DNA of 64,000 nucleotides from Escherichia coli (GCF_016903815.1 NZ_CP069973.1), one strand, 5' to 3'. Counted from the first letter of the stretch, positions 34,693 to 47,840 are shown. A program made the numbers and translations. Notes: a model not told the origin generated them from the letters alone.

Positions 34693-35841
34693 TTACCAGG
34701 CGGTATGGTAAAGCTCTACAATATCCTCAAGCGTTGCTTCACGCGGGTTGCCACCGGTACAAACATCATTCAGTGCCGCCTGCGCCAGTGCCGGAATGTC
34801 TTCCTTGCGTACCCCAACATCACGCAAATGTGGCGGAATACCGACATCACGGTTGAGAGCAAACACCGCTTCAACAGCGGCATTACGCGCCTCTTCCAGG
34901 CTCATACCTTCCACTTTCACGCCCATAACGCGCGCGATATCGCGGTACTTCTCACCGGTAAAGTCAGCGTTATAGCGCATGACATGCGGTAGCAGGATGG
35001 CGTTTGCAACACCGTGTGGAGTGTTATAAAACGCGCCCAGTGGATGCGCCATACCATGCACCAACCCTAACCCAACATTCGAGAAGCCCATACCCGCAAC
35101 ATACTGCCCGAGCGCTATTTCTTCTCCGGCATCCTTATCACCAGCAACCGATCCTCGCAGCGCCCCAGCAATGATTTCAATCGCTTTAATGTGCAGTGCA
35201 TCGGTTAGCGCCCACGCGCCACGGGTAATATACCCCTCAATAGCATGAGTGAGCGCATCGACACCCGTCGCAGCTTTCAGCGCTGGAGGCATACCATCCA
35301 TCATGTCAGCGTCAATAAACGCCACCTGCGGGATATCATGCGGATCAACGCAAACAAACTTGCGCCGTTTTTCTTCGTCAGTGATCACGTAGTTAATGGT
35401 CACTTCTGCCGCAGTGCCTGCTGTGGTGGGGATTGCCAGAATCGGTACACTGGGTTTATTGGTCGGGGAAAGCCCTTCCAGGCTACGCACATCGGCAAAC
35501 TCCGGGTTGTTGCTGATAATGCCAATCGCTTTACAAGTATCCTGTGGAGAACCACCACCAATAGCGATCAGGTAATCCGCGCCGCTATTCTGGAATACAC
35601 CGAGCCCTTCTTTGACGACAGTAATTGTTGGGTTGGGCACTACGCCGTCGTAAATCGCCCATGCCAGCCCTGCAGCATCCATCTTATCGGTCACTTTCGC
35701 CACCACGCCGCATTGCACCAGCGTTTTATCGGTGACGATCAGCGCCTTCTGATAACCACGGCGTTTCACCTCATCGGTTAAAGCCCCAACAGCACCCCGA
35801 CCAAACCATGCCGTTTCGTTCAGAATCATTCTGTTAGCCAT
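34693..35841 (-). CDS. fucO: L-1,2-propanediol oxidoreductase (lactaldehyde reductase)
   Basis: ORF 34693..35844 (MMANRMILNE...); iron-containing alcohol dehydrogenase; start at first or second Met. Confidence 0.93.
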   Translation of the reverse strand: MANRMILNETAWFGRGAVGALTDEVKRRGYQKALIVTDKTLVQCGVVAKVTDKMDAAGLAWAIYDGVVPNPTITVVKEGLGVFQNSGADYLIAIGGGSPQDTCKAIGIISNNPEFADVRSLEGLSPTNKPSVPILAIPTTAGTAAEVTINYVITDEEKRRKFVCVDPHDIPQVAFIDADMMDGMPPALKAATGVDALTHAIEGYITRGAWALTDALHIKAIEIIAGALRGSVAGDKDAGEEIALGQYVAGMGFSNVGLGLVHGMAHPLGAFYNTPHGVANAILLPHVMRYNADFTGEKYRDIARVMGVKVEGMSLEEARNAAVEAVFALNRDVGIPPHLRDVGVRKEDIPALAQAALNDVCTGGNPREATLEDIVELYHTAW

Positions 35842-35868
35842 CATCCTTCTCCTTGTTGCTTTACGAAA

Positions 35869-36516
35869 TTACTCTTCAATTCGTAACCCATAGGTTTTGA
35901 ATTTCTCCAGCACTACGGCAATCTCTTCATCGCTCAGCACTGGCACCGGGTCCGTAATCGCCAGGGTCGTCAGGTAAAGTTGCGCCAGCACTTCAACTTC
36001 ATGCGCCAGCCATAACGCTTTTTCCAGATTCACCTCACAAGCGATAAGCCCATGATGTTGTAACAAAGTTGCCTTACGATTTTTGAGAGCCAGCGCAACA
36101 TGTTCAGAAAGTTCACGTGTTCCAAAGGTCGCATAAGGCGCGCAAGGAATAGAATTACCGCCCGCCGCCGCAATCATGTAGTGAATAGCGGGGATCGGTC
36201 GGTTAAGAATGGAAACTGCCGTGCAATGAACGGCATGATTGTGAACAACCGCGTTGGCATCCGGTCTGCTTTGATAGGCTGCCATATGGAAACGCCACTC
36301 GCTGGAAGGAATCTTACCTTCTTCGTATTTGCCGTTGCCATCAACATAGACAATCATATTCTCCGTCATTCTTTCATAAGGAATACCGCTGGGAGTAATC
36401 AACATGCCGTTTTCAAAACGTGTGCTGACATTCCCCGCTGTCCCCTGATTTAACCCAAGGCGCGTCATTTCCAGACAGGTTTCAATTATTTCACGGGATA
36501 AACGTGTTCTTTCCAT
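35869..36516 (-). CDS. fucA: L-fuculose-1-phosphate aldolase
   Basis: 215-aa ORF MERTRLSREIIETCLEMTRLGLNQGTAGNVS... Confidence 0.95.
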   Translation of the reverse strand: MERTRLSREIIETCLEMTRLGLNQGTAGNVSTRFENGMLITPSGIPYERMTENMIVYVDGNGKYEEGKIPSSEWRFHMAAYQSRPDANAVVHNHAVHCTAVSILNRPIPAIHYMIAAAGGNSIPCAPYATFGTRELSEHVALALKNRKATLLQHHGLIACEVNLEKALWLAHEVEVLAQLYLTTLAITDPVPVLSDEEIAVVLEKFKTYGLRIEE

Positions 36517-36648
36517 TTCTATTCTCCAGATACAGTTTCAGCTCGCCTTGTTGCGTAAAACAGCACCGCAAATGAAGACGGGGTTATTTTTAGTAAGGGG
36601 AGGCCACTGAATATCATTGTTCAGTAGCCTGATATCTTTTGGCGATTA

Positions 36649-37647
36649 TTATTTTTTTCTTATGCGCTTAATTAATTTCATTCCTACTTTAACTGTTTTT
36701 TTGACTGGTCTTTCTTCGATCGCGCTTAACATCATTTCGAACGCTTTTTCTGCCCAGGCATTTTCATCCTGCTGCATTGACCAGACATTGTTGGCGAGAA
36801 ATCCCAGCATAGGATGTTCATCGAAAGTGCCAATATTGATTTCTGGCGGTACAGCGCCAAGACGGTCGCGAATCGCGCGGACAGCGCCTTCAAGCACAGG
36901 CAAAGACGAGGCGATAAATGCCTGCGGACATCCCTGCTCTTCAATGAGTTTTTCCATAATGACATAGCCGCCTTCCGGAGTATTTACCGGACCTTCCCGC
37001 ACCCAATCGCGATGGGTAATCCCTTTTTTTGCCAACGCATTCAAATAACCTGTCAGACGATCGCTGATACTCGGCAAACCGGCATCTCCCAGCAAAAACC
37101 ATACTGGAGCCTGCCCGGCCTCAAGAATATTTTGCGTCAGCTTTTCTCCGCCAGAAATATTATTACTCTCTACCAATGCGTTATCGGTATATTTAAAATC
37201 ACGATCGAGTAAAACCATGGGCTTACGAATTTTGCGTAAATGATGCTGCTGATTTTCCAGCGTCGAAGGAACAATAAAAAGACCATCTACATTTCGTGCG
37301 ATAAATGCTTTCGTCAATTTATTTTCATAGTCAACATCATCATAAGTGCAACTGATTGTAAGTTGATATCCGGAACGTCGACAGCGTTGTTCGAGTTTTT
37401 CTGCCAGCGTAGCAAAAAAGACGTTGGATATGTTGGGAACAATCAACCCTAATGTATCAGTTTTGTTAAGCTTAAGGCTGCGAGCGGAATGATTAATGAT
37501 ATAACCATAGCGTTCAACATATTCATTGATACGCGTTTGGGTTTTGACGCTGATTCGATATTGTTCCGCTTTTCCATTTAGCACCAGTCGCACGGTCGTA
37601 ACCGATAAATTCAGGTCGCTGGCTATCTGCTCTACTGTTTTAGCCAT
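36649..37647 (-). CDS. LacI/GalR-family transcriptional regulator
   Basis: 332-aa ORF with N-terminal HTH (MAKTVEQIASDLNLSVTTVRLVLNG...) and periplasmic-binding-like effector domain. Confidence 0.85.
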   Translation of the reverse strand: MAKTVEQIASDLNLSVTTVRLVLNGKAEQYRISVKTQTRINEYVERYGYIINHSARSLKLNKTDTLGLIVPNISNVFFATLAEKLEQRCRRSGYQLTISCTYDDVDYENKLTKAFIARNVDGLFIVPSTLENQQHHLRKIRKPMVLLDRDFKYTDNALVESNNISGGEKLTQNILEAGQAPVWFLLGDAGLPSISDRLTGYLNALAKKGITHRDWVREGPVNTPEGGYVIMEKLIEEQGCPQAFIASSLPVLEGAVRAIRDRLGAVPPEINIGTFDEHPMLGFLANNVWSMQQDENAWAEKAFEMMLSAIEERPVKKTVKVGMKLIKRIRKK

Positions 37648-37711
37648 AGGTATTTCCCAGTTAACATCCAGACGTCAAATCACAATCATAAAAGTATTTT
37701 CAACTTTTGTC

Positions 37712-39292
37712 TTATTGCATCAGTTGGTTAACCGCCTGTTGTTGCTCCCAAAGCGTCAGGTAAACCCGGTATTTACGCTCTAAAAATTCACGGCGTTGTG
37801 GATTTACCTGAATAATCTCTCCGGCTTCAACCATTGCTTTACACGCAGATGTAAAATCCCCCCATGCTCCGCTGGCAACAGCGCCGCTAATTGCTGCGCC
37901 CAACGTAACGGCATCTTCTTCTTGCATCAGGTGGATATCGCAACCTGTCACGTCTGCATATTCGCGTAGCCATAAAGGGTTGTGCGTTGCACCACCACAT
38001 AATGTTAATCGGGTAATGGTATGCCCATTTTCCCGCAGAGTTTCAATAATATGTCTGGTGCCAAAGGCTATTGCCTGTAAAGTCGCAAGATAAAGTCGCG
38101 CGAGCTGATTTTCACCACGCTCCAGTGTTAAGCCATAAACACTGCCTCTGGCATCGGGCCGCGCTCGTGGCGAACGGTTGCCGTGATGATCGGCAAGCAC
38201 ATGTAAATTTCGTGTGGGTTCTGACTCGTTAGCTTCAAGGGCTGCTACCCATTCATTAATCAGTTGAATCGGATGACATCCGCGTTGCTGCGCCTTGTGA
38301 AAAAGATTTGCGCTTGCCCCTGACTCCTGAAGCGTCCACTCCACCAGCGCCCCTGCGGCGCTTTGCCCGCCTTCGGTTAGCCAGTAATTTGGCAACATGG
38401 CCGACCAGTATGGCCCCCAGACGCCAGGGGTGAATATCTCTTTTTCACTACACAGCATATGGCAGTTCGACGTTCCGCTTATCAATGCCAGCGTTCCTAA
38501 TGGGTGAGCGCCAGCCAGCGCCACGCCACCGGCATGGGCATCAATCAAGCCACTGGCCACGATAACATTAGTCGTTAATCCTAACTCTTCAGCAGCTGTG
38601 GCGGTTAACGTTCCCACGGCAGCGCCAGGCGGAAGAATGTCGGCAGGAATTCTTTCAAGCATATCGGTCAGGTCTATCGATTCCAGTAAGCTATGGCTAA
38701 AGCGTTGCTCATGAGCTAGATAATTCCATTTACACGTTAGCGTGCATAATCCCGCGACGTCTCGCCCTGTTGCTTTCCAGACCAGAAAATCCGCCAGATC
38801 GAAAAAGCGATGAGCGGCCTGCCAGGTTTGCGGTAGATGCGTCTTCAACCAACGTAACTTTGGTAACTCCATCTCGACGCTCACTTCGCCGCCAACGTAG
38901 CGCAATGCGGGATCCTTCATTGCGTTAATCTGCGCCGTCTCGACAGTTGCACGATGATCCATCCACATAATAATGTCGTGATTCGCAGATCCACCGGACG
39001 AAACCGCTAAACCCTGGCCTTGTTCATCAAGAACAACCAGCGAGCAGGTAGCGTCAAAACCCAGTGAGCGAATTGCGGAAATGGGGATGCCTGCCAAAGC
39101 TGTCGCCTCTTTCACCGTTTTACAAACTTGTTGCCAGATCTCTGCCGAAGACTGTTCGACACGCTCGCCGCCAGGGCGAAACTGGGAGACGGGCGCAGTA
39201 GCGAATGCCAGCCTGTGGCCACTGGCACTGTAAACGCCTGCCCTGACACTGGCCGATCCGACATCGACACCGAGAAAATAACCGTTGTGCAT
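37712..39292 (-). CDS. FGGY-family pentulose-type kinase (candidate D-ribulokinase)
   Basis: ORF 37712..39412; start set at MHNGYFLGVDVGSASVRAGVY with AGGGAGG RBS (527 aa); DHHGNRSP motif typical of the ribulokinase/pentulose-kinase branch. Confidence 0.8.
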   Translation of the reverse strand: MHNGYFLGVDVGSASVRAGVYSASGHRLAFATAPVSQFRPGGERVEQSSAEIWQQVCKTVKEATALAGIPISAIRSLGFDATCSLVVLDEQGQGLAVSSGGSANHDIIMWMDHRATVETAQINAMKDPALRYVGGEVSVEMELPKLRWLKTHLPQTWQAAHRFFDLADFLVWKATGRDVAGLCTLTCKWNYLAHEQRFSHSLLESIDLTDMLERIPADILPPGAAVGTLTATAAEELGLTTNVIVASGLIDAHAGGVALAGAHPLGTLALISGTSNCHMLCSEKEIFTPGVWGPYWSAMLPNYWLTEGGQSAAGALVEWTLQESGASANLFHKAQQRGCHPIQLINEWVAALEANESEPTRNLHVLADHHGNRSPRARPDARGSVYGLTLERGENQLARLYLATLQAIAFGTRHIIETLRENGHTITRLTLCGGATHNPLWLREYADVTGCDIHLMQEEDAVTLGAAISGAVASGAWGDFTSACKAMVEAGEIIQVNPQRREFLERKYRVYLTLWEQQQAVNQLMQ

Positions 39293-39344
39293 AAAGCCTC
39301 CCTGACGCTGGAGATAACGGGGATGAAAATTCATCCCCAATTTT

Positions 39345-40295
39345 TTATTTCTTACCGAATGGGTGCAGGAGTTTGTCGATTTCTGGCGTGTTAATATTCT
39401 CGGCATTAACAAATTTCACGGGAATATCGATCTCTTTTTCAACGGCTTGCCCCGAAAGGGCCGCGTTCAACGTTTTGATCCCTTGATAGCCAATCTGGTA
39501 TGCATCCTGAACAACAAAGCCCTGAATGACGCCGTTCTTCAGGAAGTTAATAATCGCTTCCGTACTATCAAAACCAATGACCTTCACCTTACCTTTCAGA
39601 TTCTGGCTATCAATGGCATTCGCCACCCCGAGCGTTGAACCTTCATTGGTGCCATAGATCCCAGCAAGATCGGGATTGGCCTGAATCATATCGATAGTTT
39701 TATCCATCGCTTTTTGCGGGTCACCATCGCTGTACTGAACGGGTAAGACTTTAATGTCAGGATATTTTTCTTTCATACGCTCCATGAAGCCTTCCGAGCG
39801 TTCAATAGCGGAAGATGTTCCTGCAACGTGCGCGATAATCCCAACTTTCCCTTTATTATTTACCTGCGAGGCTAAGGCATCAGCTGCCTGAGCACCTGCT
39901 TTACGGTTATTGGTGGCGACAAAACTCACCGGAATGTCTGAATTGATGCCTGAATCAAAGGTCACCACTTTGATACCGCGTGAATTTGCCGTTTCTACCA
40001 GTGGGGCGAGCGCATTCGCGTCGAGGGCTGCCAGAAGCAAGCCATTCGGTTTCTGCGCCATCGCATTTTCGACTAACTGAATTTGCTCGGCTATTTGCGT
40101 TTCATCAGCCGGGCCAACATAGCTGGTTTTATCCCCCAACTCTTTAGCCGCAGCTTCAGTCCCCATTTTTACGGTTTGCCAGAATTCATGTTGGAAACCT
40201 TTACTAACAACCGGAAGATTTAAATCCTTCGCCAGTGCGCTGGAACTTACGCAAGCCAGCAGAGATAACGCATAGATAAAATGCCTGGTTTTCAT
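39345..40295 (-). CDS. periplasmic sugar-binding protein (RbsB-like) of the ABC transporter
   Basis: ORF 39345..40418; start set at MKTRHFIYALSLLACVSSSALA (signal peptide) giving 316 aa. Confidence 0.8.
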   Translation of the reverse strand: MKTRHFIYALSLLACVSSSALAKDLNLPVVSKGFQHEFWQTVKMGTEAAAKELGDKTSYVGPADETQIAEQIQLVENAMAQKPNGLLLAALDANALAPLVETANSRGIKVVTFDSGINSDIPVSFVATNNRKAGAQAADALASQVNNKGKVGIIAHVAGTSSAIERSEGFMERMKEKYPDIKVLPVQYSDGDPQKAMDKTIDMIQANPDLAGIYGTNEGSTLGVANAIDSQNLKGKVKVIGFDSTEAIINFLKNGVIQGFVVQDAYQIGYQGIKTLNAALSGQAVEKEIDIPVKFVNAENINTPEIDKLLHPFGKK

Positions 40296-40368
40296 TGTTG
40301 TACTCCGTTCTGAGTGAATCACCCTTAACGTCAGGGCAGTTGTTTCCCGATAAAACAGGGAGCCTAAG

Positions 40369-41352
40369 TCAACGAATCTTTTTGCGTAATGTATCGAGGT
40401 AAACGGCAGCGACCACAACGACGCCCATCGCGACCATTTGCCAGAACTGGGAGACGCCCATTAAATTGAGGCCATTTTTCAGTACACTCATAATGAAAGC
40501 GCCAATGATTGTGCCGCCAATAGTGCCAATACCGCCCATTAAGCTGGTTCCGCCAATCACTACCGCGGCAATAGCTTCCAGTTCATAACCCACACCTACC
40601 GTCGGTTGTCCGGAGTTGAGACGAGATGCCAGAATGACACCTGCAATCCCCGTTAATAATCCACAGAAGGCATAGACGAAAATTTTCACGCGCTGAACTT
40701 TAATACCAGAAAGATGAGCAGCAACTTCATTACTGCCTACGGCATAGACATAGCGACCAATGACGGTTTTCTTCAGGATGTAAGCGCCGACAAGCGCTAC
40801 AATGACAAGGTAGAAAACAGGATAAGGCAGCACATCAAATAAGCGTCCCTGAGCGAGCGTTTTGAACATCGGGTAATCGGCAAAATAGATGGCGCGCCCG
40901 TCGGTCATCACCATATTGATACCTCTGACGGACATCATCAGGCCCAAGGTAGCGATAAATGGTGGAATGGTCATTTTAGTGACCAACAAACCATTCACAT
41001 AGCCGCACATTCCACCGGCTAAAACACCGGCAATAATACACACTGGCAGCGGCAGGCCCAGTGTGGCGCAAATCCCCACGGCGACACCAGAAAAAGCCAC
41101 CACGGAGCCCAATGAAAGATCGATGCCCGCGGTAATAATGACGAAAGTTACCCCAATGGCCATAATGCCGATAACCGACGTTTGCAGAGCAATCGTCATG
41201 ATATTTTCGGTATTAAAGAAAAAGGGAGAGCTGAAACTAAAAAACAGCACTAATATAATTAAGCTAAAAAGAGGCGCAAGGCGCATCAAAAGTTCTTTAT
41301 TTATCTTTATTTTCTTATTATTACTGTCTGGAGAGGTTACAGAGATAGTCAT
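40369..41352 (-). CDS. sugar ABC transporter permease (RbsC-like)
   Basis: 327-aa hydrophobic ORF with multiple TM segments. Confidence 0.8.
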   Translation of the reverse strand: MTISVTSPDSNNKKIKINKELLMRLAPLFSLIILVLFFSFSSPFFFNTENIMTIALQTSVIGIMAIGVTFVIITAGIDLSLGSVVAFSGVAVGICATLGLPLPVCIIAGVLAGGMCGYVNGLLVTKMTIPPFIATLGLMMSVRGINMVMTDGRAIYFADYPMFKTLAQGRLFDVLPYPVFYLVIVALVGAYILKKTVIGRYVYAVGSNEVAAHLSGIKVQRVKIFVYAFCGLLTGIAGVILASRLNSGQPTVGVGYELEAIAAVVIGGTSLMGGIGTIGGTIIGAFIMSVLKNGLNLMGVSQFWQMVAMGVVVVAAVYLDTLRKKIR

Positions 41353-41355
41353 AAT

Positions 41356-42870
41356 TTAATCCTCTAACGTCGCGTATTGCATAATTTTTTCTTGTGTCGC
41401 TTCTTTTGCGCTAAGTTCGCCGGTAATTCGACCACTGCGCATCACTAAAATACGGTCGCACATTCCTAACACCTCAGGCAATTCAGAGGAGATCATGATG
41501 ATTGATTTCCCTTTTGCCACCAGGCGATTCATTAACTCATAGATTTCCAGTTTGGCGCCAACATCAATGCCGCGAGTGGGTTCATCGAAGATTAAAATAT
41601 CAGTATCTTTACACACCCAACGTGCAATTATAATTTTCTGCTGGTTTCCTCCACTTAGATTTAATGCCGCCTGTTCAAGATTTGGCGTTTTAATCCTTAA
41701 CGCTTTTACCTGTTCCTCACTGGTTTGTTGGCAACGACGCGAATCGACATTCCCAAAACGATCGGAATATTCAGGGTAGTTTCCTAACATAATATTTCGT
41801 TCAACAGATAAATTCAGCGCCAGCCCTTCTTTTTTGCGGTCTTCCGTCAGGTAACTAATTCCCTGCTGAATAGCATCCGAAATATCTTTAATAACGGTTT
41901 CCTTACCATTTAATTTTAGCGTTCCGCTGTCAATAGAATCCGCACCAAAAATCGCACGCGCAAGTTCAGTACGCCCCGCGCCCATCAGTCCGGCAAAGCC
42001 GAGGATCTCGCCACGATAAAGCGTAAAATTAATATCGTTCAGGACGCCTTTGCGCGTCAGTCCGTTTACCTCCAGAACCGGAATCCGCTGCTGCAAGGCC
42101 TCGCGGCGGGGATAGATATTCCCTAAATCGCGACCAACCATCATGGCAATCAGATCGCTGATTTTTACGCACTCATAATCCACCGTGCTGATGTACTGAC
42201 CATCACGCATTACAGTCGCACGGTCGGCAATTAGCGCCAACTCTTCCAGACGGTGGGAGATATAAACAATGCCGGTCCCCTGCTCTTTCAATAACCGGGT
42301 GACGCGAAATAAGCTTTCAATTTCAGTTTCTGTTAACGCCGCAGTAGGTTCATCCATAATGAGAATCCTGGCGTTAACTGAAATGGCCTTGGCAATTTCT
42401 ACCATCTGCTGCTGAGCTACCGTAAGGTCGGCAACCAGAGTATCTGGTTTGATCGCCAAATTTAATTTTTGCAAAATTTCAATCGTCGCCTGGCGTTGCT
42501 GTTTTTCATCCAGACGCCAGCGATTTTTTTTACAAAACTCCCTGCCGATAAAAATATTTTCTTCTACTGTAAGCTCGGGAAATAAATTAAATTCCTGGTG
42601 AATAATAGTAATACCTACGTTTTGCGCACTTAACGGATCAGAAAATGAGACTGGTTTATCTTCAAAAATTATTTCGCCTTCATCAGGTTGATAAACCCCC
42701 GACAAAATTTTCATTAAGGTAGATTTTCCTGCACCATTTTCACCTAATAATGCATGAACCTCGCCCCGGCGTAGGGAAAATTGCACGTCATTAAGCGCCA
42801 ACACTCCAGGAAAGCGTTTGGTGATATGCTTCATTTGCAAAAATGTTTCGGACATTGCAGCTTTCCTCAA
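41356..42870 (-). CDS. sugar ABC transporter ATP-binding protein with two NBDs (RbsA/CUT2-like)
   Basis: 504-aa ORF with Walker A GENGAGKST, second P-loop GLMGAGRTE and signature LSGGNQQK. Confidence 0.85.
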   Translation of the reverse strand: MRKAAMSETFLQMKHITKRFPGVLALNDVQFSLRRGEVHALLGENGAGKSTLMKILSGVYQPDEGEIIFEDKPVSFSDPLSAQNVGITIIHQEFNLFPELTVEENIFIGREFCKKNRWRLDEKQQRQATIEILQKLNLAIKPDTLVADLTVAQQQMVEIAKAISVNARILIMDEPTAALTETEIESLFRVTRLLKEQGTGIVYISHRLEELALIADRATVMRDGQYISTVDYECVKISDLIAMMVGRDLGNIYPRREALQQRIPVLEVNGLTRKGVLNDINFTLYRGEILGFAGLMGAGRTELARAIFGADSIDSGTLKLNGKETVIKDISDAIQQGISYLTEDRKKEGLALNLSVERNIMLGNYPEYSDRFGNVDSRRCQQTSEEQVKALRIKTPNLEQAALNLSGGNQQKIIIARWVCKDTDILIFDEPTRGIDVGAKLEIYELMNRLVAKGKSIIMISSELPEVLGMCDRILVMRSGRITGELSAKEATQEKIMQYATLED

Positions 42871-42987
42871 TAATCAGAAACTGAAAATGTGAAGTACGGC
42901 ATAAACGTCGCTACTAAAGCCATCTCCACTGTGATACGAATAACCTTTGAATAAATATTCATCGCATCAATCTATTCTTCGCATTTT

Positions 42988-43003
42988 GCTAACTCGAGTT
43001 AGC
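42988..43003. promoter_or_regulatory. 16-bp perfect palindrome GCTAACTCGAGTTAGC (candidate operator), upstream of the ABC operon
   Basis: Read directly; 118 bp upstream of the ATPase start codon on the minus strand; identical to the site at 43227. Confidence 0.5.
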
Positions 43004-43226
43004 GATCGCCTTTTAAAGCTATTTTAGGTATACAAATTAGCCAAATCATTTGAGTTAAAACTGTGATGCATAACCATTAAAATCTAATAACCATATGATT
43101 ATACGTAAAATTTATTTTTCTCCCGCTAAATAATAATTTGACAGAGATCGTATTTTAACCACTTCTCGTGAAGCCCCTCACATTTCAACAACAAAAAAGT
43201 TGTGCATAAAAAGCCTACAAACCTAA

Positions 43227-43242
43227 GCTAACTCGAGTTAGC
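43227..43242. promoter_or_regulatory. 16-bp perfect palindrome GCTAACTCGAGTTAGC (candidate operator), upstream of fucI
   Basis: Read directly; 83 bp upstream of the fucI ATG; identical to the site at 42988, 239 bp away. Confidence 0.5.
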
Positions 43243-43324
43243 AAATAATGACCAATACTACTGCTTCGGTGGTTTCCTTTCTCCGCCTTAGCAGAGCGCC
43301 AATAAAGCGAGATGAGGAATCCTG

Positions 43325-45100
43325 ATGAAAATTAATACGTTACCGAAAATTGGTATCCGCCCGGTTATTGACGGTCGTCGCATGGGTGTTCGTGAGTCGC
43401 TTGAAGAACAAACAATGAATATGGCGAAAGCCACGGCCACACTGCTGACCGAGAAACTGCGCCATGCCTGCGGAGCTGCCGTCGAGTGTGTCATTTCCGA
43501 TACCTGTATCGCGGGTATGGCTGAAGCCGCTGCTTGCGAAGAAAAATTCAGCAGCCAGAATGTAGGCCTCACCATTACGGTAACGCCTTGCTGGTGCTAT
43601 GGCAGTGAAACCATCGACATGGATCCAACCCGCCCGAAAGCCATTTGGGGCTTTAACGGCACTGAACGTCCCGGCGCTGTTTACCTGGCAGCGGCTCTGG
43701 CAGCTCACAGCCAGAAAGGCATCCCGGCATTCTCCATTTACGGTCATGACGTTCAGGATGCCGATGACACATCGATTCCAGCCGATGTTGAAGAAAAACT
43801 GCTGCGCTTTGCCCGCGCCGGTTTGGCAGTCGCCAGCATGAAAGGTAAAAGCTATCTGTCGCTGGGCGGCGTTTCGATGGGTATCGCTGGTTCCATCGTT
43901 GATCACAACTTCTTTGAATCCTGGCTGGGAATGAAAGTCCAGGCGGTGGATATGACCGAACTGCGTCGCCGTATCGATCAGAAGATTTACGACGAAGCCG
44001 AACTGGAAATGGCGCTGGCCTGGGCTGATAAAAACTTCCGCTACGGCGAAGATGAAAATAACAAACAGTATCAACGCAATGCCGAGCAAAGCCGCGCAGT
44101 TCTGCGCGAAAGTTTACTGATGGTGATGTGTATCCGCGACATGATGCAAGGCAACAGCAAACTGGCCGATATTGGTCGCGTGGAAGAATCACTTGGCTAC
44201 AACGCCATCGCTGCGGGCTTCCAGGGACAACGCCACTGGACCGATCAATATCCCAATGGTGACACTGCCGAAGCGATCCTCAACAGTTCATTTGACTGGA
44301 ATGGCGTGCGCGAACCCTTTGTCGTGGCGACCGAAAACGACAGTCTTAACGGCGTGGCAATGCTAATGGGTCACCAGCTCACCGGCACCGCTCAGGTATT
44401 TGCCGATGTGCGTACCTACTGGTCACCAGAAGCAATTGAGCGTGTAACGGGGCATAAACTCGATGGACTGGCAGAACACGGCATCATCCATTTGATCAAC
44501 TCAGGTTCTGCTGCGCTGGACGGTTCCTGTAAACAACGCGACAGCGAAGGTAACCCGACGATGAAGCCACACTGGGAAATCTCTCAGCAAGAGGCTGACG
44601 CTTGCCTCGCCGCTACCGAATGGTGCCCGGCGATCCACGAATACTTCCGTGGCGGCGGTTACTCTTCCCGCTTCCTTACCGAAGGCGGCGTCCCGTTCAC
44701 CATGACTCGTGTCAACATCATCAAAGGCCTGGGACCGGTACTGCAAATCGCGGAAGGCTGGAGCGTGGAATTGCCGAAGGATGTGCATGACATCCTCAAC
44801 AAACGCACCAACTCAACCTGGCCAACCACCTGGTTTGCACCGCGCCTCACCGGTAAAGGGCCGTTTACGGATGTGTACTCGGTAATGGCGAACTGGGGCG
44901 CTAACCATGGGGTTCTGACCATCGGCCACGTTGGCGCAGACTTTATCACTCTCGCCTCCATGCTGCGTATCCCGGTATGTATGCACAACGTTGAAGAGAC
45001 CAAAGTGTATCGTCCTTCTGCCTGGGCTGCGCACGGCATGGATATTGAAGGCCAGGATTACCGCGCTTGCCAGAACTACGGTCCGTTGTACAAGCGTTAA
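43325..45100 (+). CDS. fucI: L-fucose isomerase
   Basis: 591-aa [41 protein letters not shown]...; GAGGAA RBS. Confidence 0.95.
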
Positions 45101-45178: not shown

Positions 45179-46627
45179 ATGTTATCCGGCTATATTGCAG
45201 GAGCGATTATGAAACAAGAAGTTATCCTGGTACTCGACTGTGGCGCGACCAATGTCAGGGCCATCGCGGTTAATCGGCAGGGCAAAATTGTTGCCCGCGC
45301 CTCAACGCCTAATGCCAGCGATATCGCGATGGAAAACAACACCTGGCACCAGTGGTCTTTAGACGCCATTTTGCAACGCTTTGCTGATTGCTGTCGGCAA
45401 ATCAATAGTGAACTGACTGAATGCCACATCCGCGGTATCGCCGTCACCACCTTTGGTGTGGATGGCGCTCTGGTAGATAAGCAAGGCAATCTGCTCTATC
45501 CGATCATTAGCTGGAAATGTCCGCGAACAGCAGCGGTTATGGACAATATTGAACAGTTGATCTCCGCACAGCGGTTGCAGGCTATTTCTGGCGTCGGAGC
45601 CTTTAGTTTCAATACGTTATATAAGTTGGTGTGGTTGAAAGAAAATCATCCACAACTGCTGGAACGCGCGCACGCCTGGCTCTTCATTTCGTCGCTGATT
45701 AACCACCGTTTAACCGGCGAATTCACTACTGATATCACGATGGCCGGAACCAGCCAGATGCTGGATATCCAGCAACGCGATTTCAGTCCGCAAATTTTAC
45801 AAGCCACCGGTATTCCACACCGACTCTTCCCTCGTCTGGTGGAAGCGGGTGAACAGATTGGTACGCTACAGAACAGCGCCGCAGCAATGCTCGGCTTACC
45901 CGTTGGCATACCGGTGATTTCCGCAGGTCACGATACCCAGTTCGCCCTTTTTGGCGCAGGTGCCGAACAAAATGAACCCGTGCTCTCCTCCGGTACATGG
46001 GAAATTTTAATGGTTCGCAGCGCCCAGGTTGATACTTCGCTGTTAAGTCAGTACGCCGGTTCCACCTGCGAACTGGATAGCCAGGCAGGGTTGTATAACC
46101 CAGGTATGCAATGGCTGGCATCCGGCGTGCTGGAATGGGTGAGAAAACTGTTCTGGACGGCTGAAACACCCTGGCAAATGTTGATTGAAGAGGCTCGTCT
46201 GATCGCGCCTGGCGCGGATGGCGTGAAAATGCAGTGTGATTTATTGTCGTGTCAGAACGCTGGCTGGCAAGGAGTGACGCTTAATACTACGCGGGGGCAT
46301 TTCTATCGCGCGGCGCTGGAAGGGTTAACTGCGCAATTACAGCGCAATCTACAGATGCTGGAAAAAATCGGGCACTTTAAAGCCTCTGAATTATTGTTAG
46401 TCGGCGGAGGAAGTCGCAACACATTGTGGAATCAGATTAAAGCCAATATGCTTGATATTCCGGTAAAAGTTCTCGACGATGCCGAAACGACCGTCGCAGG
46501 AGCTGCGCTGTTCGGTTGGTATGGCGTAGGGGAATTTAACAGCCCGGAAGAAGCCCGTGCACAGATTCATTATCAGTACCGTTATTTCTACCCGCAAACT
46601 GAACCTGAATTTATAGAGGAAGTGTGA
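45179..46627 (+). CDS. fucK: L-fuculokinase
   Basis: 482-aa FGGY kinase ORF; synteny. Confidence 0.93.
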
Positions 46628-46628
46628 A

Positions 46629-47051
46629 ATGCTGAAAACAATTTCGCCGTTAATTTCTCCCGAACTATTGAAAGTGCTGGCAGAGATGGGACATGGAGAT
46701 GAAATTATTTTTTCCGATGCTCACTTTCCCGCCCATTCGATGGGACCGCAGGTGATCCGCGCTGATGGCCTGTTGGTGAGCGACTTGCTCCAGGCGATTA
46801 TCCCGTTATTTGAACTGGACAGTTACGCACCGCCGCTGGTGATGATGGCAGCGGTAGAAGGTGACACTCTCGATCCTGAAGTAGAACGACGTTACCGTAA
46901 TGCGCTTTCACTACAAGCCCCGTGTCCTGACATCATCCGCATCAATCGTTTTGCGTTTTATGAACGGGCGCAAAAAGCCTTTGCGATCGTTATCACAGGC
47001 GAACGAGCGAAGTACGGGAATATTCTTTTAAAAAAAGGGGTAACACCGTAA
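46629..47051 (+). CDS. fucU: L-fucose mutarotase
   Basis: 140-aa ORF; synteny. Confidence 0.93.
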
Positions 47052-47108
47052 TCTCATACCGGTACGCCCGCATGACGCGGGCGGTTATCGAATGATGGGG
47101 TGAAAAAT

Positions 47109-47840
47109 ATGAAAGCGGCACGCCAGCAAGCGATAGTCGACCTGCTGCTGAACCATACCAGCCTGACCACGGAAGCTCTCTCTGAACAGCTAAAGGTCAG
47201 TAAAGAAACCATTCGTCGCGATCTCAATGAATTACAGACGCAGGGTAAAATTCTGCGCAATCATGGACGCGCTAAATATATCCACCGTCAAAATCAAGAC
47301 AGTGGCGATCCCTTTCACATCAGGCTGAAAAGCCATTATGCGCATAAAGCAGATATCGCGCGCGAGGCGCTCGCGTGGATTGAAGAAGGGATGGTGATAG
47401 CCTTAGACGCCAGTTCAACTTGCTGGTATCTGGCACGCCAGTTGCCTGACATCAACATTCAGGTCTTCACCAATAGCCATCCGATTTGCCATGAACTCGG
47501 TAAACGCGAACGCATTCAACTGATCAGTTCCGGCGGCACACTTGAGCGCAAATATGGCTGTTACGTCAATCCCTCGCTGATTTCCCAACTTAAATCGCTG
47601 GAAATCGATCTGTTTATTTTTTCTTGTGAAGGGATCGATAGCAGCGGCGCACTGTGGGACTCCAATGCCATCAACGCTGATTACAAATCGATGCTATTAA
47701 AACGTGCCGCGCAATCGTTGTTATTGATTGATAAAAGTAAATTTAATCGTTCAGGGGAAGCCCGCATCGGGCATCTGGATGAGGTAACGCACATTATTTC
47801 TGATGAGCGCCAGGTTGCAACTTCTTTGGTAATAGCCTGA
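47109..47840 (+). CDS. fucR: DeoR-family L-fucose operon activator
   Basis: ORF 47100..47840; start set at MKAARQQAIVDLLLNHTSL giving 243 aa. Confidence 0.9.
   Translation: MKAARQQAIVDLLLNHTSLTTEALSEQLKVSKETIRRDLNELQTQGKILRNHGRAKYIHRQNQDSGDPFHIRLKSHYAHKADIAREALAWIEEGMVIALDASSTCWYLARQLPDINIQVFTNSHPICHELGKRERIQLISSGGTLERKYGCYVNPSLISQLKSLEIDLFIFSCEGIDSSGALWDSNAINADYKSMLLKRAAQSLLLIDKSKFNRSGEARIGHLDEVTHIISDERQVATSLVIA

Follow-up and report, generated by a model that had tools for sequence, protein, structure and literature searches.

The window analysed here, a stretch of 64,000 nucleotides of Escherichia coli DNA (GCF_016903815.1 NZ_CP069973.1), carries the L-fucose (fuc) locus in the version of E. 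coli B. A non-coding control region of 454 bp (42871-43324) separates fucI from a divergent operon for an ABC (ATP-binding cassette) sugar transporter, and it contains two copies of a perfect 16-bp palindrome. These palindromes were concluded to be, very probably, the operators of a Cra/FruR-like regulator of the LacI family that is encoded at 36649-37647, in the same gene island. The conclusion was drawn from DNA and protein sequence, in the window and in related loci of other genera.

The palindromes and the island regulator

The element GCTAACTCGAGTTAGC was found in exactly two copies in the window, at the positions given in Table 1 and 239 bp apart from start to start, just as the sequence-only reading had placed them. 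Both copies are perfect palindromes of even length with a central CG (GCTAACT-CG-AGTTAGC). No third site with three or fewer mismatches was detected anywhere in the 64 kb, for which 0.13 sites of this quality are expected by chance (dinucleotide shuffles). When a weight matrix was built from the orthologous sites, both copies had the highest score possible (30.4 bits), and elsewhere in the window no position scored more than 5.1. Taken together, the two copies extend to a 19-nt inverted repeat (TTT.../...AAA); a natural E. coli single-nucleotide polymorphism (SNP) at 43245 shows that this extension is not fixed. In three divergent alleles that were examined (98.7-99.1% identical, the lowest-ranked match included), the SNPs fell outside both palindromes.

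According to PMC4052901, LacI-family operators are even palindromes whose length is 16-22 bp and whose centre is a CG pair, and they precede a start codon by roughly 30-140 bp. Both sites agree with this description in length, central CG and distance to the start codon, so the operator architecture proposed earlier, a perfect 16-mer with a central CG, was borne out. The end of the right operator (O_R) lies 82 nt from the fucI ATG, for which about 83 bp had been claimed. For the left operator (O_L) the claimed distance of about 118 bp to the start of the ABC operon had to be corrected to 132 nt, since the ATPase gene most likely starts at ATG 42855 rather than at TTG 42870. The longest open reading frame does begin at the TTG; the ATG is most likely the true start because it is the one called in RefSeq, it opens an N-terminus that is conserved across genera (MSETFLQMKHITKRF) and it is preceded by a GAGGAA ribosome-binding site. 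The CTCGAG core of each copy had been regarded as a consequence of the palindrome and not as a trace of engineering, which is right: the sequence is a natural one, carried by 381 complete E. coli genomes and by members of many other genera. A literature search with the 16-mer returned only unrelated short hairpin RNA oligonucleotides with an XhoI loop.

The regulator has 332 amino acids and could be aligned over its full length with LacI-family models and with the structures of Cra, PurR and CcpA. Its best models were those of the fructose/sucrose repressor subfamily and of Cra, both well below their cut-offs (TIGR02417, 234 versus 389.55 bits; NF008452, 218 versus 385), and by these NCBIfam cut-offs it is not a Cra/FruR equivalog. 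The nearest solved structures were those of Cra/FruR from Vibrio cholerae and E. coli. The N-terminal region aligns with Cra without gaps, including the stretch NGKAxQYRxSxKT, and the hinge reads ARSLK, in which the Leu of the hinge helix is retained. The recognition helix differs from that of Cra at four positions (SVTTVRLVLNG in the regulator, SRTTASYVING in Cra), and the helix-turn-helix region is nearly invariant across 16 orthologues of the regulator. Judged by these alignments, the regulator is a paralogue of Cra/FruR; the earlier claim that the island encodes a LacI-family regulator was confirmed and the protein was placed in the Cra/FruR branch.

The published Cra motif is gcTGAAtCGaTTCAgc (PMC5888115). 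When the palindrome was compared with it, both were found to share the same 16-bp frame and 12 of the 16 bases, and the differences are symmetric, at positions 4/13 and 6/11. Such a symmetric change of two positions per half-site is the pattern expected of a paralogue with altered DNA specificity. The likeness to the Cra system of E. coli and other Gammaproteobacteria includes the family branch of the regulator and the operators, both being even palindromes of 16 bp with a central TCGA and an outer GC. The two systems differ in range, as the island regulator is local and tied to pentose and deoxyhexose genes, whereas Cra is global.

A profile of the 16 regulator orthologues was used to collect 77 loci (1.48 Mb in total) from 100,044 species genomes, and close orthologues were present in 75 of them. 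Their identity to the regulator ranges from 96% (Escherichia whittamii) down to about 49-54% (Proteus, Gilliamella), with Citrobacter, Pluralibacter, Lelliottia, Enterobacter, Atlantibacter, Buttiauxella, Serratia, Dickeya, Brenneria and Klebsiella in between. The 77 loci contain 120 sites with up to two mismatches to the 16-mer, where 0.39 are expected. Although 83% of this DNA is coding, all 94 sites with up to one mismatch are intergenic, and 90 of them are no more than 181 bp away from the start of a gene. Their neighbours are fucI, the ABC operon, the regulator gene itself or kinase genes of the darK type. The consensus of the motif is GCTAAyTCGArTTAGC (as a search pattern, GCTAAYTCGARTTAGC), in which A4 hardly varies and relaxation is confined to positions 6 and 11 (0.9 bit). 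The motif tracks the orthologues through the 77 loci and through varied gene contexts, a co-evolution that supports the earlier interpretation of the palindromes as sites of the island regulator. A dispersed repeat, which would have spoken against that interpretation, was not found either: the additional copies are intergenic and linked to the regulator.

In 27 loci the layout is that of the window: fucI and the ABC operon are separated by a region with twin sites at a distance of 238-240 bp, and darK is optional. Single sites were found between fucI and the regulator gene in Superficieibacter, and between fucI and darK-regulator in Chimaeribacter. In the 49-61% identity group, a site lies 30-100 bp upstream of a gene for a darK-like pentulose kinase, which is followed by a gene with an L-fucose-isomerase C-terminal domain. 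Often, another site is located about 60-75 bp upstream of the regulator gene, an autoregulatory position. In Klebsiella, Mixta, Franconibacter and others, a relative of the regulator with 52-53% identity has the same operator about 60 bp upstream of its own gene. Most of these loci also have two operators, separated by 219-376 bp, in the interval that an MFS transporter gene shares with an uncharacterised gene; L075 has one site there. The cluster is sugar-acid-like and encodes a dehydratase of the enolase superfamily, an SDR and a DapA-like aldolase (L051, L052, L055, L057, L062, L070, L072, L073, L075). Judging from the shared operator, this relative would have the same DNA specificity and a different regulon.

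In Lelliottia, Huaxiibacter, Superficieibacter and Chimaeribacter, a further site precedes an operon that encodes a DUF2961 protein together with a glycoside symporter of the GPH family, which suggests that the regulon extends to D-arabinoside-type substrates in some genera. The regulator is repeatedly associated with a pentulose kinase and an isomerase of the FucI type, and in these four genera with the DUF2961 protein, all of which points to D-arabinose-type substrates. We take DUF2961 (PF11175) to be the GH172 family, which includes alpha-D-arabinofuranosidases. DUF2961 (Pfam PF11175)/symporter operons stand behind an operator in L019 (10949-13800), L030 (11043-13945) and L034 (11002-13925), and also in L021, L032 and L074. 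The supplement of PMC4052901 contains a regulog of one genome and unknown function, 'PMI2934' of Proteus mirabilis, which may represent the Proteus orthologue.

The twin sites are also retained in loci that have no fucR. In L016-L025 and L030-L034 (Pluralibacter, Pseudenterobacter, Atlantibacter and others), fucR gave no match even at E = 1e-3, and the LacI-type protein is thus the sole local regulator of those twin-site clusters. The gene is kept in the loci of E. coli, Citrobacter, Buttiauxella and Serratia DD3.

Control region and alternative roles of the palindromes

When the intergenic regions of 20 species were aligned as a footprint, the operators, two CRP-type sites and promoter-like hexamers appeared as conserved blocks at fixed distances (Table 1). 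The TTGTGA half-site on the left is conserved in the 20 species, with one mismatch in five, the window among them. From this arrangement, the fucI promoter is predicted to start near 43236, with CRP centred at -61.5 and O_R covering -10 to +7. The promoter of the ABC operon would start near 43009, with the CRP-like site near -61 and O_L at about +6 to +21, a position comparable to that of lac O1.

Table 1. Predicted regulatory elements and genes of the B-type fucose locus in the window
Feature	Position	Strand or side	Remarks
O_L, left operator (predicted), GCTAACTCGAGTTAGC	42988-43003	ABC-operon side	exact consensus; 0-2 mismatches in 18/20 aligned species
Predicted -10, ABC-operon promoter, TAGCTT	43016-43021	-	TAGnnT in nearly all 20 species (TAC in one)
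Predicted -35, ABC-operon promoter, TTGGCT	43039-43044	-	17 bp from -10; TTGGCT / TTGTCG in alignment; in conserved block TTAGCCAAAT / TTCGACAAA
CRP-like site, left, TGTGA-N6-ACCAT	43062-43077		TGTGA half-site 43062-43066; second half-site weak
Conserved central block TTTGACAGAGATCGTATTTTAACCACTTCT	43137-43166		30 bp
CRP site, right (predicted), CGTGA-N6-TCACA	43167-43182		zero mismatches in 20/20 species
Predicted -35, fucI promoter, TTGTGC	43200-43205	+	TTGT in 19/20 species; TTGT(G/C) in alignment
Predicted -10, fucI promoter, TAAGCT	43224-43229	+	overlaps first 3 nt of O_R; CTAAGC / CTATGC in 20/20 species
O_R, right operator (predicted), GCTAACTCGAGTTAGC	43227-43242	fucI side	exact consensus; 60 bp from right CRP site start in 20/20 species
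fucO, lactaldehyde reductase	34693-35844	-	
fucA, L-fuculose-phosphate aldolase	35869-36516	-	probably co-transcribed with island genes
LacI-family (Cra/FruR-like) regulator, predicted cognate repressor	36649-37647	-	TIGR02417 best NCBIfam match; Cra/FruR nearest structures
FGGY pentulose kinase, DarK D-ribulokinase of E. coli B	37712-39292	-	TIGR01315 above cut-off; DarK identity after PMC12307932
Periplasmic sugar-binding protein of ABC transporter	39345-40295	-	
ABC transporter permease	40369-41352	-	
ABC sugar transporter ATPase, first gene of left unit	41356-42855	-	
fucI, L-fucose / D-arabinose isomerase, first gene of right unit fucIKUR	43325-45100	+	
fucK, fucU, fucR	45209-47840 (fucR 47109-47840)	+	starts transferred from BL21 RefSeq

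In the proposed mechanism, one regulator dimer would occupy each 16-bp site, with the conserved Leu of the hinge helix acting as a lever at the central CpG. The dimer at O_R would cover both the -10 element and the transcription start of fucI, whose promoter would depend on CRP. The dimer at O_L would sit downstream of the start of another CRP-dependent promoter, from which the ABC transporter genes, darK and the regulator gene would be transcribed, probably along with fucA-fucO. Both divergent units, and with them the regulator's own gene, would be off when no inducer is present. Both units would be turned on by cyclic AMP-CRP together with a sugar signal; the most likely signals are L-fucose and D-arabinose, singly or jointly, or a closely related metabolite. 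Such co-expression is needed because each sugar draws on both units: D-arabinose on FucI (right) and DarK (left), and L-fucose on FucI/FucK (right) and FucA/FucO (left). The fucose enzymes and the D-ribulokinase of E. coli B are said to be coordinately regulated, and constitutive mutants were reportedly constitutive for all these enzymes. The apparent inducers were reportedly L-fucose and D-arabinose and not ketose phosphates. Such behaviour would suit a repressor that binds the sugar and acts at two identical operators. In BL21, fucI is induced on fucose (PMC10221146), and growth on D-arabinose takes place (PMC6150544) although fucA is disrupted by IS1 in that strain.

Several points weigh against this interpretation. 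The promoter hexamers (TAAGCT, TAGCTT, TTGTGC, TTGGCT) are only moderate matches to the consensus, and they were missed by a generic promoter scan of the region, which returned two weak and non-conserved hits that were not used. The orthologous sites were gathered by similarity to the E. coli sequence, which biases the motif model. The residues equivalent to N73, R149 and R197 of FruR are conserved in the regulator; these are family-wide sugar contacts that do not discriminate the effector. Lastly, a member of the FruR family is able to activate from a promoter-proximal operator, as described for V. cholerae (PMC7897506).

Based on the last point, the island regulator could bind the sites as an activator or a dual regulator, in the manner of V. 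cholerae FruR with fructose-1-phosphate. This close structural relative binds between -35 and -10 when it activates, and its effector does not dislodge it (PMC7897506); the predicted fucI promoter, with a spacer of 18 bp and weak hexamers, would be compatible with such a role. Nevertheless, O_R lies over the predicted -10 and +1 and O_L downstream of the predicted start, both typical positions for a repressor, and the constitutive mutants said to have been obtained in E. coli B would fit the loss of one. In addition, the LacI family consists mostly of repressors, and autoregulation applies to 72% of its regulators (PMC4052901). Activation was consequently considered unlikely, and repression by the island regulator was kept as the preferred reading.

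It was considered very unlikely that the palindromes are sites of the global regulator Cra, which would link the fucose and D-arabinose genes to glycolytic flux. The 12 matching positions in the same frame as gcTGAAtCGaTTCAgc favour such a role, but the arms read TAAC/GTTA and not TGAA/TTCA, and the mismatches fall on G4/C13 and A6/T11, which are capitals in the published motif. Both pairs of positions are important for Cra. Since the orthologous sites keep A4 nearly invariant and have C or T at position 6, they represent a distinct motif. Moreover, the sites track the gene of the paralogous regulator, some of them directly in front of it, whereas every one of these genomes has Cra in any case.

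A role of the palindromes as RNA, in the form of hairpins, terminators or processing sites, is barely credible. A scan for terminators did report a weak stem-loop with a T-rich tail behind it on the - strand (43242-43227), but the stem has only 6 bp with a loop of 4 nt, and the sites lie between divergent genes, where there is nothing to terminate. Furthermore, the bases are invariant rather than co-varying, and positions 6 and 11 change independently, for instance in GCTAACTCGAATTAGC.

Finally, practically no weight was given to a non-regulatory origin of the two copies, either as terminal inverted repeats that belong to a small mobile element or as scars left when the island was inserted: a 19-nt perfect inverted repeat around 223 bp in a horizontally exchanged island would suit this explanation, but only two copies occur in the 64 kb, no target-site duplication was seen around the 261-bp unit (flanks read by eye, no formal test), the module with its fixed internal distances is conserved in at least 10 genera, single copies stand at other regulon promoters, and near-exact copies are intergenic and promoter-proximal.

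Other features were also noticed in the control region. The block TTTGACAGAGATCGTATTTTAACCACTTCT is kept in the group of Escherichia, Citrobacter, Pluralibacter and Enterobacter, and it is not kept in Atlantibacter, Buttiauxella and Serratia. A TGA triplet at 43096-43098 is fixed within the divergent spacer in 19 of the 20 species (TAA in Citrobacter youngae), and in E. coli a TATAAT lies alongside on the - strand. The triplet and the block stand outside the operator/CRP model and could correspond to a second promoter or to the site of another factor. In the fucI leader (43258-43296), a stem-loop without a U-tail was predicted (CUGCU..GGUGG-loop-CCGCC..AGCAG), and the leaders of Citrobacter and Lelliottia have an equivalent predicted hairpin of different sequence, with apparently compensatory changes. 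This hairpin may be an mRNA-stabilising or regulatory element.

Spacing between the operators

Three distances were found to be fixed in the 20 species, namely O_L to TTGTGA (73-74 bp), TTGTGA to CGTGA (105-106 bp) and CGTGA to O_R (exactly 60 bp). By comparison, the distance between operator and start codon ranges over 39-152 bp at the ABC operon and over 82-103 bp at fucI. The first and the third of the fixed distances are explained by promoter geometry, but the second is not. The 88-89 bp between the CRP sites keep their length while the identity to E. coli falls to 30-38% (Atlantibacter, Buttiauxella, Serratia). A middle part that has diverged in sequence and kept its length suggests a coupling between the two halves of the region.

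Considering this geometry, a loop between operator-bound regulators that encloses two CRP-bent sites is possible. The spacing of 238-240 bp in the 27 loci is no more than suggestive of looping. For the inter-operator distances of three architectures (239, 365-376 and 219 bp), phase coherence was seen at a fitted repeat of 10.4 bp per turn (R = 0.84, nominal p ~0.02); as the points are few and partly non-independent, this is at most a hint of helical phasing. The FruR of E. coli has been described as a tetramer and that of V. cholerae as a dimer (PMC7897506).

A more far-reaching proposal is that the 239-bp unit is a phase-locked divergent switch, in which a repressor loop would enclose the two CRP sites and the repressor would directly sense free L-fucose and D-arabinose. 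The spacer would then be constant to 1 bp despite a near-random sequence because of the loop. The logic of the fucose regulon would have changed from an activator that senses a ketose phosphate to a repressor that senses the sugar, in about 7% of E. coli and in many Enterobacterales. This proposal is tentative and is regarded as rather doubtful.

The lac operon, with LacI O1 at +11, auxiliary operators and CRP at -61.5, shows several of the same features: an operator at or just past the start, the class I CRP geometry predicted here, more than one operator and a constrained length between operators. It differs in that the window has two equal and perfect operators for two divergent promoters. 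The regulator, as read from its 332 residues, also has no C-terminal tetramerisation extension of the LacI type, and the loop is only proposed here.

The B-type fucose locus and its regulation

The complete 454-bp control region was found in 381 of 5,426 complete E. coli genomes (about 7%), always once per chromosome. Its identity was at least 98.7% in every match shown, the lowest band of the search being 95-99%. The carriers include B, BL21, C41/C43 and strain C, and the window corresponds to the B-type fuc locus of E. coli. Homology to K-12 ends at 36486, inside the 5' end of fucA, and restarts at 43313, 12 bp before the fucI ATG. The island in between (36487-43312, 6.8 kb) has no similarity to K-12; it replaces the 5' end of K-12 fucA, fucP and the whole fucA/fucP control region, and both palindromes are located in its DNA. 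According to the BL21 annotation, the gene order is fucO, fucA, the LacI-family regulator, the FGGY kinase, the sugar-binding protein of the ABC transporter, the permease and the ATPase, with fucI, fucK, fucU and fucR in the divergent direction.

The control region is identical in the window and in BL21. In BL21, fucA is interrupted by IS1 (locus L001, 4222-5646), and it is intact in the window, which places the window outside the BL21 lineage. The regulator gene is separated from fucA by 132 bp, in which neither a convincing promoter nor a convincing terminator could be recognised. The left unit may thus extend from the ATPase gene to fucO, with the regulator gene included. The gap contains a hairpin with a stem of 11 bp and no U-tail (36596-36632, - strand; AGGCUACUGAA ... 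UUCAGUGGCCU).

The locus has been described before, as the L-fucose/D-arabinose cluster of E. coli B with the D-ribulokinase gene darK (Elsinghorst and Mortlock 1994, as cited in PMC12307932) and as the 'variant 2' fucose operon, in which the ABC transporter takes the place of fucP (PMC10221146); both correspond to the locus of the window. No mention of the operator, the twin palindromes, the promoter architecture or the role of the regulator was found in the accessible literature on the locus (darK, repressor, LacI with fucose, BL21 locus tags). The gene content is thus already known, and the operator/regulator pair, which is of a well-known kind, was previously undescribed.

In K-12, the fuc genes are controlled by FucR, an activator of the DeoR family that is induced by fuculose-1-phosphate, and the divergent units fucAO and fucPIKUR are CRP-dependent. 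The B-type locus shares with this regulon the genes fucO, fucA, fucI, fucK, fucU and fucR and a divergent layout with CRP dependence, the latter being predicted here. It differs in that the regulatory DNA of K-12 and fucP are missing from the window, and a LacI-type regulator with twin operators is found instead. Since the K-12 control DNA is missing and loci without fucR exist, we infer that control by FucR has been lost in B-type strains. When FucR boxes were searched for in the B-type region, only one weak ATGACC was seen (43247-43252), which is not conserved in E. whittamii or Citrobacter; the K-12 intergenic region has repeated ATGACCG boxes. FucR sites were rejected for the B-type region.

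The regulation of the B-type fucose locus has apparently never been worked out, even though this version is carried by E. coli B, BL21, REL606 and C and by about 7% of sequenced E. coli. The K-12 model of FucR and fuculose-1-phosphate would not apply to it, because the K-12 control DNA is absent. The operator, the candidate repressor and the predicted promoter map offer a testable explanation for the coordinate induction by L-fucose and D-arabinose that reportedly occurs in E. coli B. The spacer of invariant length with two CRP sites provides a model for spacing constraints in divergent promoters, and the finding as a whole would gain in interest if the length-locked module proves to be a repression loop. 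As a compact and symmetric pair that is related to Cra and differs from it in DNA specificity, the operator and its repressor may serve as an orthogonal sugar-responsive switch. The locus represents a clean natural case of regulator replacement inside one species.

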